NCBI GenBank assembly: GCA_030264375.1
Contig: JASCQW010000168.1
Coordinates: 12,963,081-13,022,994, forward strand
Length of the DNA stretch: 59,914 bases
Reading direction: 5' to 3'
Source: Carcharhinus longimanus
Taxonomy: Eukaryota
How positions within the stretch are numbered: the stretch's first letter is position 1; every line of letters starts with the position of its first letter. The position numbers and the translations under genes were made by a program. Below the pieces are notes generated by a model. It was not told where the DNA came from, searched no databases, and saw only the letters and a list, made by a program, of their open reading frames with translations. Positions 18,830 to 57,320 of this stretch are shown in pieces.

Positions 18830-19340
18830 TAATTAGAATGTCTGCGTCATTCCTCTCCACTGTGAAGACAAAGTACTCATTAAGAACCTCCCTACATCTT
18901 TTGCACAAGTTATACTGTACACCCCTGATCAAACCTGCCCTTTCCTTAGTTATCCTCCTGCTCTTAAGGTACTGATAAAACATTGTGGGTTTTCCTCAAT
19001 TATACATGCCAACATTTTAATATCCTTTATTTGCTTTCCTAATTTCCTTTATTTGCTTTCCTAAATTTCCTTTATTTTTACTTCATTCCTGTATTTTCTA
19101 TACCACTAGGTATTCTTAAGTATTAGGTTTTTTATGGCTGTATTAAACTTTTATTTTTCTGCATTATTTTACCCTGTACACTTCTGGATAACCCAGGGGC
19201 TCTTGATTTGGCAGTAACACCATTTTTCTTTGGCGGGGGTCAAGTCTACTAGTGCCTCTAAAATCTTGTTCTTGAATGTCTCCTGTTGATCTATCACTAT
19301 AACCAGTCCATTTCACCAGATCACCTTGCAACTTTATAAA
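18830..19340 (-). mobile_element. CR1 LINE fragment (continuation), containing a 22-bp tandem repeat at 19023-19078
   Basis: tccactgtgaagacaaagtactcatt is CR1-like; tcctttatttgctttcctaatt occurs about 2.5 times. Confidence 0.6.
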
Positions 19341-20426
19341 TTTGTTTTTCGTCAATTTAGAAATGTTTCAGTTACGCTGGATAAATTTGTATGCTGTGCA
19401 CACCAAGTTACTCTTGACTGAGAGAGAGGCTGGACTATACATGATGTTATACAATTCTGCAGGCTCTGGAATCCATGTTTTGACATCATAATTTATCTAT
19501 TCCAAAAGCAAAGGAAATCATCACGCCATTTAAACGTGTTAATTCTGGTGCAGCTCACTTTATAGCAAAGGGCAATGTTACTTAACAAAAGCCATAGAAA
19601 ATCAATATTTTGGGACTCCTAGTAGTTACTGTATTACAGTATTTACTCAGTTTGTTGCATCTATTTAATCCAGAATTTTAAGATGAAAGTAAAGGTAAAA
19701 ATTCCTGAATAAGAATGGACAAGTTGAAACTCAGTGGAATCTCATTACTTTTCAGCAATAAGTTGGAAAAGTTTTGCATTTTTAATCCTCATGTTGATCA
19801 GACAATTGATGAATCATTGTCAGTGCAACTGAAAGACTGCAGACGAGAATGAGCTATCTGCTTCAGCATCTAACGCAGCTAATCAATTGATAAAGTAGAA
19901 AGTCTCTATGAATAGGTGGAGAGAGAAGACTTCTGGTCCCAGTTATTTGCCAGAAGAGAATTACAAGAAAATCAAGGCAGACAACTATTAACACCCAACA
20001 CCTGCATTTCCTAGTGATCATTTGCCCTACAAAATAATTTAACACAGAAACATCACACCAAAACTGCTGAAGCTGCGTCAAAAACATTGTAATACATTTT
20101 ATTTCAAAAAAATTAAACTGTTCTACTAAAATAAACATGAATAATGGCGGCCATTTCTAATTCATGCAATGCTATTTTCTATCTACAGAAAGCATTCCCA
20201 AATCAGCAAATGTCTACACTAACATAGAAAGGACTAATCGAAGAGAAAGGCAGTTGCTAATAAGTTCAGTAGGTCTGTCCGAAAGTAAGTGGGTGAGGGA
20301 CTGCATGCTTCTGTGTTTGAACAGCAGTTCTACTCAACACTACGCCTCTAACGTGTCTACATTCCTCAGCAATGCAAATGTGTCTAACACAATCAAGAGA
20401 GTAAAACAAGAGCATGCACATCTTAC

Positions 20427-20435
20427 CTTGATGAA
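20427..20435 (-). CDS. KCNMA1: Candidate 9-nt alternative microexon of KCNMA1 (S1-S2 linker)
   Basis: tctaat...ctctttctcccattcatttcctcttaaaaatatcaaattgttag|TTCATCAAG|gtaagatgTGCATG. Frame-preserving, no stop in phase 2. Confidence 0.5.
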
Positions 20436-21539
20436 CTAACAATTTGATATTTTTAAGAGGAAATGAATGGGAGAAAGAGCTGGTATTAGATCAAGTTATT
20501 TTTGATGGCAGATTCCATTAGTAAAATGTTAGCATGTAGCTTTTCTCAGGAAAAAAAAACTTGTAATCTTTAGCTTTCCAGCCAGTAAGCACCAGATAGC
20601 TTTTGACAAAGTTGCTGCCGCCACCAAAGCTGTGCAAAGCAGCTAATGAGAAAAGTACTTCAGATGTTTTGTCTTCCCCTCAGCAGGCTGGGATGAATGA
20701 TATCAGGGTTGTGTGTTGCAAGGAAACAAAAAAGTCAAATGAAATAGCACCAATGACATTTGTGCACTCTCCTCTTCCCAAACATCTGTAACCAATGTGA
20801 TTCAGAAGAAAATCAGTCCGAAAGCCACCTCAGTTGAGCACAATAAACCCACTGCACTCTGTTTCCAAAATGGTAACACTTTAAGATTTTAAAAAGTAAA
20901 CTATTGTTTCCTTTTCCCTTGTTCTATCCAATCAACCAATAAAGGACTGAAACATTTCATCTACAATTTGGTGTAAATGTTCACCAAATCCCATTGGTTC
21001 CCATTCCAGGCTTGTAACTATGGATCGTCTGCCATCAATTTCATTTTGAAGTTGGGTAGGTGGCTTATAATCAAAAAAAAACTCGCAAAAATTTTAATTA
21101 TGTCAAACTCTTAGTGTTCTGTTGTAATACTATTGATATGTTCAATTTCACTGGAAGGTCAATGACAAGATTAAGAGCTGGATGGTTGATGCTCAAAGAT
21201 TCCATCGCCTTCCTCATCTCACTGAACTGCTGAAGCATGAGACAATACTCATAAAAAACATGATGCTCAATGTTGTAGGTGGAATTAAAAAAAGAAACGG
21301 TTGAAAATTAAACTTGAACAGTCAGTGAGTTCTGTTTCTTATAGCAATATTTTCTACAAGAGTTTAGAACCAATGGTGGCAACTTGTCATATGCCAGCTG
21401 AGCATTTTAAGGTTGCCAGTTACACTGCACCATCTAATTTGTGGTTTTATTTGATCATCATCAGAATGTGCTGAGAAAGCTGTCAAATTTTCTTTTATCT
21501 GCATATTATATGTTTGAAAATGTCCTTGGACAGCAGGTA

Positions 21540-21858
21540 ATGGTCTTGTGGTTGCCATTTACATCCCCCCTGGATAGATCTTTTGTTTCTTTACTGACCA
21601 TTAACACCCTCCTTTTGCCTTGCACCATCATCCATTTTGTCATTCAAATACTTCTGGTCTCCGCCCTAACAGAGATCTCGCCTTTCCTTCTTTCAATCCT
21701 GCCAACCTTTTGCCTTTTGCTCCCTGACTCAGGTGCTGCTTATAAACAGTTGTATAATTTCTTTCAGTTCTGTTGAAAGATCATCAGTCCAAAATACTAC
21801 CTCTGTATCTCACTCCACAGTTGCTGCCCGAGCTGTTGAATGCTTCCAGCATTTTGTC
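21540..21858 (+). mobile_element. Penelope-derived element
   Basis: Ends ctttcagttctgttgaaagatcatcag...gctgcccgagctgttgaatgcttccagcattttg. Confidence 0.55.
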
Positions 21859-22559
21859 AAGTAATTGGCAGCCCTGTTAACAGACATAATCATGCCTGCT
21901 CTTTGAAAAAATTAATTAGTCCTACTCTCCTGCTCTTTACTATAGCTTTGCAAAATTTTCCTTTTCAGATATATATCCAACTCTTTTGAAAGTTACTATT
22001 GAATCTGCTTTCACCACCAGTTCAGGCAGTGCATTCCAGATCATAGCAGATGATTGTGTAAAATAAGGCATTTTACATCAGCTTCTTTTGCCAATTATCT
22101 TAAATCGGTGCCCTCTTATTACCAAATGTACAGCAATTTTCAAAAAAATACTTCCATTTGCAATGCCGTCAGCATAAGGAGGATATACTTCTTATAAATA
22201 GAAGTGATCCTCCTATTGACAAATTATGAGAGAAAGCAGCTTATTTCCTCTAGACTGCAATCCAATGTAAAATAAATGCATCCCGGAGAAAGGCTGCCAT
22301 CGACTAACTGTTAAGAAAAAGGTAAGGAGAACACATTAAAATGCTCCCAAAAGTTAGGGATTTCATACTTATAAATCAATTAAAAAACACAAAATGTAGA
22401 ATAGCAGATAAATAGTTTATATGCTGGAAATATTTATTAACGTAAGTATTAGTTCACAAGTTATTCCAAAAGTGTATACAAATCTATAAATAGAAATGAT
22501 TAGCATTTTTGCCTATGCTCCATTGGAAAAGCCAAATTAAAAGGTATTGTGGTACTTAC

Positions 22560-22621
22560 TCTGAAGAATCTATGAAGTATATTACAAGTGCACCAATGCT
22601 GAGAGCAAAGACCAAGACCAC
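22560..22621 (-). CDS. KCNMA1: KCNMA1 (Slo1/BK channel alpha) internal coding exon encoding TM segment S1 (canonical exon 3)
   Basis: Minus strand reads tgtttcttctctttttcag|GTGGTCTTGGTC...GATTCTTCAGA|gtaagt. The 62 nt, phase 0 to phase 2, translate as [20 protein letters not shown]+GA, matching the vertebrate Slo1 S1 sequence ([31 protein letters not shown]). Confidence 0.97.
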
Positions 22622-45590: not shown

Positions 45591-48349
45591 ATTGTTTCAA
45601 ACTGCTTATTAAATATCAAATCATGCTGGGGTGTTATGATCCTGGTTTACATGCATCTTAAGTAAAAATACTAGAAAGAAAACCTATAACCCAGAGTCAG
45701 GGTTTAAGTTACTGTACATAACCACAACAACATCATTCTTTCTGTACAATATATCAGATATTGACTTGTTTACAGACATGCATTAGATCTGAATTTTTAT
45801 TCTATAAGTAAATACAGTACAGTGGGCTTCACATTCTGACATCAAAGTCAAACAATGCACAACACTACAATCTACGTAGATAAATTATCAGTCATTCCTT
45901 GAACTGTCTAGGTTCCTCTGACAATCCCTCTTAAATCTGTCCAATTCCCCAACTTTAAGAGCATCCTTACAATCTAACTTTTTAAGTGAGCATTTGGTCA
46001 TTGCTTCTAATCTTTCCTTTGATTCATCACTCCTTTCTCCTCTAAGCCTCTATGAAACACCTGCAGGTGTTCCCATGTACGCAAGCCACAATAAGTATGT
46101 TACTGATGGCTAAACTCTCATTACAACTTCCCATATTGAAGAAAGAGTCCAGTGGCAATCATCCAGTTGACTGGATATGCAGGTTAGGTGGAGTTATGGG
46201 GGATAGGACCAGGGAGTGGGCCTGAGTGCTCTTTTAGAGGGCCTCTACAGACTTGATGGACCAAATGATCTCCCATCTGCATTGTAGGGCTTCCCTGGAT
46301 TCTATTTACAGTGATAGCTAAATGGTTTCAACTATTTTTTTCATTCCTGACCCCGTCTGGGTTTGGGAACAAATCCTACAGGGTTTGGTATTCTTGAGAT
46401 ATTCTAATATTGAACAGAATTTACAGCACAGTCCCATGTGTTTGCACAGATTCCCCTTAAATGCATTTGATTTTCACAGTAACACTCAGTAAAATTTTAC
46501 ACTCATTGCAGTGTAAGCCTACTTATCACACTAATAAATAAACTTAAACTTTAAGCTATGGCATTCACTTCAACTACATTTTGGGATAGCAAGTTCCACA
46601 ATTCTCAACACAAAGATAAAGTATGAAATGTGGACCTTCCTCCATGTTCTATAATGTATAATCCAAAAAAATCACCTTAAGACAAAGTACAAGCCCTGTA
46701 TATTAATACTGGAGATCTAACATTAAGATATTAATATCTCCAAGAGATAGGTATGGCTGGTTTTCCAGAATAAGTCAGTGAATACTAATGCAAGAGTGAA
46801 TAACTAGTGATGAGTGAGGTTGCAGCAGCTATCTGTGTTAGCATGCAAACGAGAATCACTTCATGCATTATGAATGGTCACAACTGGGATTACTTTTTCC
46901 ACAATCTGTTCANNNNNNNNNNNNNNNNNNNNNNNNNNNNNNNNNNNNNNNNNNNNNNNNNNNNNNNNNNNNNNNNNNNNNNNNNNNNNNNNNNNNNNNN
47001 NNNNNNNNNNNNCCACAATCTGTTCAGTTTTGTTGAGTGTCATATGTCGACTATGTTGTCTTAAATTTTTCATGGTATCAAATATATTTGCTACCCCATT
47101 TCAATGGTCCGCATTTATTGCGACGTCCTTTGAGCAAATGTGACTGTATATTTATGCGAACATGCTAAGAAGAAAGAGCAATGTATCAGAATGTTCTATC
47201 GCCCGAATATTTCACCTGCTGTTCAGTGAGGTTTTTGTGTGGTTTGGAAACATATGCCAAGTGGCTAGGTGGCAGGGTATTATGAGATATACTCGTGAGG
47301 ATTTTTTGGCAGGAGCTTTTTGCTTTGTAAGTTAAGTTGCACCTATTTTTGAATTTCAGTGTCTCTGGGGCAAGTGAATACCTAGAAGACAATACGCTAT
47401 ACCTCAGAACAAAAAAAGCATAACCGCAAACTGAACATTCAGCGAAGCCCCTTGCTGCAGATTTACAACAATTCAAGCTTCTCAAAAGAACCCAATCAGT
47501 TTAAAGGAAATTCCTGATGTAAACACGAAGAAATATTTGCATCAAAACTTTACGTTTCAGTCAACTATACTCTGCAGAGGAAATCTACTGGTTAATGCAA
47601 TGGCAACTATAAGTGAAAGGGTCATAGCCAGAAGAACAATAGAAAGAGTAGAGTTTGAAAGTATATGAACAGTGTGCATGACAGTACATTTTTAAAAATT
47701 TGCATTAATAACATTAATTTTATATAAATTAGACAAAGTTCACTTCAGATGGTTTGATTCTGTCAATACTAGTTGGATATAAACAGGGTGGTTATGCAAC
47801 CAGCCGTATTGTCATTGGAAATGACAAGCTAGTTAGCTTGCTTCACTCAATATGATTATACAAATTCCTTTATTTGTTTCTTCCAATTTTCTCTCTTGCG
47901 CCAAGAGTATATTCTACTGGATATCCTTAGCATGTCACCCATGAAGCTGATCCTAACCATGTGCAGACTTGGACCCAAGCCGATCGTTATGATACGCATA
48001 TGAACACATCTCATAAGGATTACTGGATAGTGATGAGGAACAGGAACTTTAGGAGTTTCCCCCTTCCCTGCTTCACCTGAATTAATGCATATTTGTTTGC
48101 TTGAAAAACATGCAATAAACCAGCTTTCAATTATTAATTTTGTAATTAAAAACACCCACAAAGATCAGTGGAAGTTTGGCAATTCAGTGTAACTTGGCAT
48201 GGTCTGGGATTTTTATTATGATGGATTTTTGACATGCATTGATTGTAAAACGTACCACAGCAAGATCATTTGTAACAGTATACAAAGCCAGAATTGATTG
48301 ACAGCAGCAATCTCCATTTATATGCTCATCATCAGGTGAGAAACATCAC

Positions 48350-56397: not shown

Positions 56398-57320
56398 AAA
56401 GACTGATCAGTAAGTTTACAGATTATACGAAAATTGATAGAGTGGTAAATAGTGAGGACGACAGCTTTAGATTACAGAAAGATATAGACAGACTGGTTAG
56501 ATGGCTTATTAATGGCAAATGGAATTCAATCCGGATACATGTGAGGTGATGCACTTGGGCAGGACAAACAAGGCAAGGGAATACATGATGAATGGCAGAA
56601 CCCTGGGAAGCACAGAGGATCACAGGGATCTTGGTGAGCACTTACATTGGTCCCTTAAAATAGCAGGACAGGTGGATAAAGTTATTAAGGCATATGGTTT
56701 ACTTGCCTTTATTAACCTAGGCATAGAGCTTAACAGCAGGGAGGTTACGTAGGATGTATATAAAATGTTGTTTAGGCTATGGCTATATTGTGTGCAGTTC
56801 TGGAATCCATACTATAGGAGGGACATGATAGCACTGGATAGGATGCACACATAATTTACCAGGATCTTGCCTGGGCTGGAGAGTTTTAGTTATGAAATGA
56901 GATTGGATAGAGTGGGGTTCCTTTCTTTGGAGCTGAAGAAACTGAGGGAGGACATGAGAAAGATAAAATTATGAGGGGTATAGATAGAATAGACAGAAAG
57001 AGACATTTCCCGTTGGTGGAGGATCAATGACTCAGGACATAAATTTAAGGTAAAGCGCAGGAGGCTTTGAGGGGATGCCAGGAAAATCCTTTTCACCCAA
57101 AGTGGGAATTGTGGGAGTCCACAACTCACTGCCTGAAAGGGTGGTGGAGGCAGAGACCTTCTTAACATTTAAGAGGTATTTAAATGTGCACTTGTGATAC
57201 CAAGCCATACAAGGCTATGGGCCAAGTGCTGGAAAAGGGGTTAGGATAGTTAGGTGGTTTGTCTTTGACTGGTGCAGATACAATGAGCCAAATGGCCTTT
57301 TCCTGTGCTGTATACCTCTA
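56398..57320 (+). mobile_element. CR1/HER1 3' portion (about 920 bp) inserted into an old SINE
   Basis: WQMEFNPDTCEVMHLGRTNKAREYMMNGRTLGSTEDHRDLG; flanked by tgacctc at 56391-56397 and 57321-57327. Confidence 0.92.

Follow-up and report, generated by a model that had tools for sequence, protein, structure and literature searches.

The locus considered here raises the question of whether nine bases in an intron of the BK channel gene of Carcharhinus longimanus are an exon, what would select them and what they would do to the channel. The window (the whole stretch of DNA analysed, 59,914 nucleotides of contig JASCQW010000168.1) contains a single coding exon, which lies on the minus strand, matches residues 117–135 of human BK (KCNMA1) and is the S1 exon of kcnma1. 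The exon before it is located ∼208 kb upstream on the same contig and encodes protein 98% identical to that of Mustelus asterias. The S2 exon is also on this contig, 56.9 kb 3′ of the S1 exon and 34 kb outside the window. The S1–S2 intron is 57 kb long, of which ∼3.5 kb are given as N. The S1 exon and the elements of the candidate exon within the intron are as follows, numbered by position in the window.

22560..22621, minus strand: kcnma1 exon for transmembrane helix S1, 62 nt, ending in phase 2 within an Asp codon
20485..20490, minus strand: branch-point-like tctaat, 50 nt 5′ of the acceptor, of presumed use
20455..20479, minus strand: polypyrimidine tract of 25 nt (23/25 pyrimidines), which opens an AG-free zone without UGC
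20427..20435, minus strand: TTCATCAAG, 9 nt, very likely a cassette microexon, phase 2-2, coding three serines that follow the Asp corresponding to human N136
20421..20426, minus strand: 5′ splice site gtaaga, as read from the sequence

The AG-free zone extends over 42 nt, from 20479 to 20438, and the acceptor reads ttag. The nine bases are within the 27-nt limit for microexons, are bordered by canonical AG and GT, and keep the reading frame. These splice elements, and three GCATG sites described below, were all found on the minus strand at the positions given in a preliminary description of this DNA, which had also called the region repeat-free; the two properties looked at, a single genome match and no sizeable internal repeat, agree with that. 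The same description had proposed a three-residue insert in phase 2 reading SS(S/R). Length and phase were correct, but the first base of the S2 exon is C and the insert is therefore SSS, so that the linker with the microexon reads IDSSD-SSS-PIES.

Gene-strand sites of the form YAG-N(3–30)-GTRAG number 95, and five are left after filtering for frame, an AG-free zone and pyrimidines; among those five, the microexon alone has a TGCATG within 150 nt. Across the sequenced S1–S2 intron, it is the sole 9-mer flanked by AG and GT or GC that is able to encode the insert. An alternative donor or acceptor at the S1 or S2 exon was rejected as the source of SSS because the adjoining bases code for other residues. 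A structured RNA was likewise rejected, with a folding z-score of 0.80 and no Rfam match in 19500–22500 at E values up to 0.1. Other stretches of 3–27 nt that pass the microexon filter lie at 57132, 17120, 12894 and 5835 (minus strand), with one more in L004; they have neither a nearby TGCATG nor a comparable UAG cluster and occur in no fetched protein.

The same insert is present in BK proteins of other fishes. Three protein searches and two cluster look-ups yielded 350 proteins, in 305 of which the linker could be read by pattern. SSS is carried by 18 proteins (one from S. retifer, seven from S. canicula, three from C. plagiosum and seven from A. radiata), and ISS is found at the same junction (D-ISS-PIES) in two paddlefish isoforms among the 350. 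XP_038639221.1 (S. canicula isoform X6), XP_032868523.1 (A. radiata isoform X7) and AWO14627.1 (S. retifer) have identical SSS in the identical place. Eight pairs of isoforms from the same species, present in three species as RefSeq models, differ by the three residues alone, which is the mark of a cassette exon. RefSeq models account for the majority of carriers; AWO14627.1 was submitted to GenBank and is taken here to be the ampullary clone of Bellono 2018.

In a search centred on the insert, 13 of 5,371 BK hits outscored the insert-less form, all from the same five species, a count that covers cluster representatives only. Fifty-five further cluster members, mostly teleost, contributed one extra carrier, again S. 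canicula. No teleost or tetrapod carrier was present among the proteins retrieved, and the retrieved isoforms of sturgeon, bichir and coelacanth are without the insert, as are those of 16 other elasmobranchs. Among the latter is S. torazame, and as two of the carrier species belong to its genus, its lack of the insert suggests under-annotation. The paddlefish carriers, ‘alpha-1-like’ kcnma1 isoforms X1 (XP_041124276.1) and X3, resemble the shark form in having three residues inserted at the same junction and differ from it in reading ISS rather than SSS; known from proteins alone, their insert would be homologous judging by position and sequence. Among the retrieved paddlefish isoforms, the insert is confined to one of two kcnma1 copies.

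The intronic flanks provide a further line of evidence.

20078..20678, minus strand: conserved intronic block around the microexon, 1–2 substitutions per 601 nt in run X18, boundaries picked post hoc

Run X18 derives from another organism, ∼97% identical to the window, and its contigs, of depth below 5, cover 2,046 of 2,101 nt. It has 47 substitutions in total, of which 40 are listed individually; 32 of the listed ones fall in 19300–20077 (∼4%) and one (two at most, from the contig total) in 20078–20678. The 336 nt singled out in the preliminary description contain one listed difference against 46 in 1,710 nt (P = 0.002, or 0.011 if one unlisted difference falls inside), and the post hoc block gives P values of 7e-8 to 1e-6. 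Sequencing errors at a depth below 5 are not expected to spare one block. The lone listed change within the block, at 20388, is a purine–purine swap ahead of a UUAG. The exon, splice sites and GCATG sites are untouched by any listed change, and the check on conservation of the splice sites and TGCATG thus has a favourable outcome in this one other organism. Run X17 is identical to the window and may be its source organism, and is not counted as independent. Runs X3 and X15 yielded no contigs over this part of the intron and count neither for nor against conservation.

The earlier proposal of a microexon in the S1–S2 loop is borne out both by orthologous isoforms that have or lack the three residues and by the conserved flanks. 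The carriers' insert is known from proteins alone and this shark's exon from DNA alone, which would allow the nine bases to be an unspliced look-alike kept by chance in this shark, the insert of the database isoforms coming from elsewhere. However, the ends of the flanking exons cannot supply SSS, no other 9-mer fits, the flanks are constrained and a GenBank entry outside RefSeq contains the insert; we regard a chance look-alike as most improbable. On their sequence, the nine bases very probably form a cassette microexon of kcnma1, which would add three serines to the extracellular S1–S2 loop, and splicing of it in C. longimanus itself appears almost certain.

Candidate regulatory elements lie in the intron past the donor, with offsets counted downstream.

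20123..20386, minus strand: 15 UAG triplets, putative Musashi-type enhancer with presumed binding, +41 to +302
20413..20418, minus strand: TGCATG, RBFOX-type, +9
20304..20308, minus strand: GCATG, +119, predicted to pair with the +9 site
20163..20168, minus strand: TGCATG, +259

The 300 nt past the donor contain 15 UAG against 3.7 expected (P = 8e-6, or 5e-4 over 64 triplets), an enrichment noticed after looking rather than set beforehand, and the 300 nt upstream contain two. The triplets include three clusters, at +68/77/85/95, +191/206/211 and +242/246/253/268. Fifteen is the maximum of 5,522 gene-strand windows and was matched in none of 1,000 dinucleotide shuffles; other loci never reach 13 in those 5,522 windows, in 5,524 of the opposite strand or in 2,913 of the rest of the intron. 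The end of the UAG cluster approximately coincides with that of the conserved block. The triplet is a target of hnRNP A1/A2 as well. A Musashi-type exon is followed closely in the downstream intron by groups of three or more UAG that are missing upstream, and the shark exon has this layout. In mouse, such downstream clusters are up to eightfold enriched at photoreceptor exons and are bound by MSI1 (PMC4991804; PMC9509328); neither paper mentions Kcnma1 in its main text. The Musashi-activated Ttc8 exon 2A and the Cep290, Cc2d2a and Cacna2d4 exons are also short, with several clusters of at least three UAG within ∼300 nt downstream and few upstream. Unlike those photoreceptor exons, the shark exon has downstream RBFOX sites as well, and in mouse downstream RBFOX sites are described as marking exons that are less included in photoreceptors. 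MSI1 is further reported to prefer longer exons and to be insufficient alone for most retinal microexons (PMC10987577, a review).

The preliminary description pointed to RBFOX-dependent inclusion; on this view RBFOX would be the chief activator of an ordinary microexon of brain or muscle, and the abundance of UAG would matter less. Three GCATG occur in the 300 nt against 0.39 expected (P = 0.008); as RNA, (U)GCAUG is present three times downstream (GCAUG at +10, +119 and +260) and not upstream, unchanged in X18. A downstream (U)GCAUG promotes inclusion in described cases such as the muscle Snap23 microexon (PMC12064062), and the YGCY count is slightly raised (7 against 3.4). Against RBFOX as the main activator, 13 of the 1,105 windows, spread over three other loci, also reach this GCATG count, and the conserved block follows the UAG-rich stretch. 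The two nearest sites, at +9 and +119, are complementary and predicted to be paired (p 0.6–1.0 depending on the window), partly because both contain the same palindrome. RBFOX, NOVA and ELAVL are, in addition, reported to be low in photoreceptors and hair cells (PMC10987577). The three sites are real and RBFOX control is plausible, but its signal is weaker than that of UAG and the nearest two sites are predicted to be paired; RBFOX as the leading activator seems to us rather unlikely. Positions 20418–20403 and 20317–20302 form a 16-nt inverted repeat, the 85-nt loop of which holds the first five UAG; in the folding model, this repeat could switch accessibility from one protein to the other, RBFOX or Musashi. 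The three other clusters of at least three GCATG are near 45800, 32700 and 28100 (minus strand), in the long intron ahead of the S1 exon.

Another candidate regulator is SRRM3/4. The exon would then be a standard neural microexon that the downstream motifs modulate only slightly, and its nine frame-preserving nucleotides, long AG-free zone, far branch point and strong donor would all suit that role. The last 40 nt of the upstream intron contain no UGC, a motif present in 74–79% of SRRM3/4 targets and absent in the other 21–26% (bioRxiv 2024.09.17.613571); its absence here places the exon outside the majority, and SRRM3/4 dependence is judged unlikely. Motifs for MBNL, QKI, NOVA and PTB around the exon are without clear enrichment.

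We read the downstream motifs as a dual-input enhancer, with Musashi as the probable first input and RBFOX as the second, and Musashi with RBFOX appears a more likely regulator than RBFOX alone. As separate claims, Musashi being the main activator is about evenly poised between true and false, and RBFOX may or may not contribute to inclusion with equal probability. In a paddlefish list of lateral-line-enriched genes, KCNMA1 is 4.1-fold enriched, and msi and rbfox genes are absent from it (PMC5429088). kcnma1 is expressed in catshark ampullae according to a catshark expression paper. Enrichment of the microexon in electroreceptors or other receptor cells is a tentative expectation that falls somewhat short of even.

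The insert follows the residue matching N136, three residues past D133 and five ahead of C141, in a segment where auxiliary subunits approach. D133 is described as part of a Cu2+ site, and its substitutions move V0.5 from 206 mV to 224–238 mV, a shift of ∼18–32 mV (PMC2346571, Table I). The beta-4 subunit contacts the S1–S2 loop and C253 of gamma-1 adjoins C141 (bioRxiv 2023.11.01.565197); the original beta-4 structure describes contacts on S1 and the pore helix, with almost no contact between the ectodomain and the alpha subunit (PMC6934384). By analogy with the D133 shifts, and with beta-4 and gamma-1 contacts near the loop, gating or subunit coupling would likely change to a modest extent. 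The route to such an effect would probably be geometric; the beta subunit and the hook of gamma-1 lie opposite this loop. We lean slightly towards the insert having a measurable effect on the channel.

The exon might instead be real and regulated with its serines functionally near-neutral, the loop tolerating a change in length. All 14 of the mammalian-type solved BK sequences are without the three residues, and the loops of fly and Aplysia are one and two residues longer, respectively, than the mammalian loop. Deletion of conserved Musashi-type photoreceptor microexons in mouse is reported to leave ERGs unchanged, and the absence of teleost and tetrapod carriers among the retrieved proteins also fits near-neutrality. 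On the other hand, the same residues occur in catsharks, bamboo shark and skate and ∼600 nt of flank are constrained, which implies selection; near-neutral serines are on the unlikely side. Alternatively, the serines could act chemically, if phosphorylation or O-glycosylation of DSSDSSSP in the secretory pathway altered the surface charge by the voltage sensor. The extracellular position and the Ser/Asp-rich composition favour this, and dentin phosphoprotein is heavily phosphorylated on its DSS repeats, but the first residue of the paddlefish insert is Ile; we consider a chemical role highly unlikely.

The explanation preferred here is that inclusion of the microexon would lengthen the extracellular S1–S2 loop of BK by three serines. 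The conserved intron past the donor would drive inclusion, with Musashi acting on the UAG clusters as the chief input in sensory receptor cells and RBFOX likely adding to it in neurons or muscle. The prediction for the lengthened loop is a modest shift in gating or in coupling to beta/gamma subunits, which would be a new means of adjusting electrical sensing. As a whole, this chain stands roughly a one-in-two chance of being right. The UAG cluster allows a cheap test of whether electroreceptors use a photoreceptor-like Musashi splicing programme.

Other tiny in-frame cassette exons tune BK. SRKR (site C1) and STREX are of this kind and sit in the cytosolic gating ring rather than in the voltage sensor. 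IYF is another small C-terminal insert. SV1 (33 aa in S1) and mK44 (44 aa in the S0–S1 loop) are likewise splice variants of the N-terminal membrane region of BK, but they use another junction, are far larger and cause ER retention or cleavage, whereas SSS adds 3 aa to the extracellular S1–S2 loop (PMC4116789). The SSS exon is therefore not SV1, mK44, STREX or SRKR, from which it differs in junction and sequence. Where BK splicing in the literature consulted affects the cytosolic gating ring or introduces large N-terminal inserts, SSS is a natural three-residue change in an extracellular loop of the voltage sensor. No description of an S1–S2 microexon of BK was found in the literature searched, with a passing mention in King 2016 or Bellono 2017/2018 being possible, and a search by peptide and accession returned one match, which was unrelated. 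The exon is unmentioned in the accessible sections of two skate BK papers, a sawfish paper and its supplement legends, a catshark paper and two papers on BK variants; the legend of Figure S6 in the sawfish supplement refers to splice sites 3 and 4 and exon 21. The preliminary description had not recognised the exon among known variants, and no paper naming it was found; it is nevertheless already recorded in RefSeq models and a GenBank entry. We conclude that this is a real, conserved and apparently undescribed splice site in the voltage sensor of cartilaginous-fish BK, possibly common to paddlefish too.

A more far-reaching scenario is that the exon dates from the jawed-vertebrate ancestor, was kept in electroreceptive fishes (sharks, skates and paddlefish) and lost in teleosts and amniotes, is Musashi-driven as an extension of the photoreceptor programme to electroreceptors, and contributes to the way in which the published ampullary BK channels of shark and skate differ; we hold this to be speculative and distinctly unlikely. 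S. retifer BK combines SSS with a counterpart of the 12-residue C2-site insert that has been reported as exclusive to a single skate ampullary sequence, and the little-skate protein that shares its linker with the King ampullary clone has neither insert. With the chain-catshark BK record containing SSS and the little-skate record being without it, a shark–skate comparison may have mixed species with splice form. As a separate observation, models from char (Salvelinus) join a short alternative N-terminus straight onto the S2 exon, with S0 and S1 missing.
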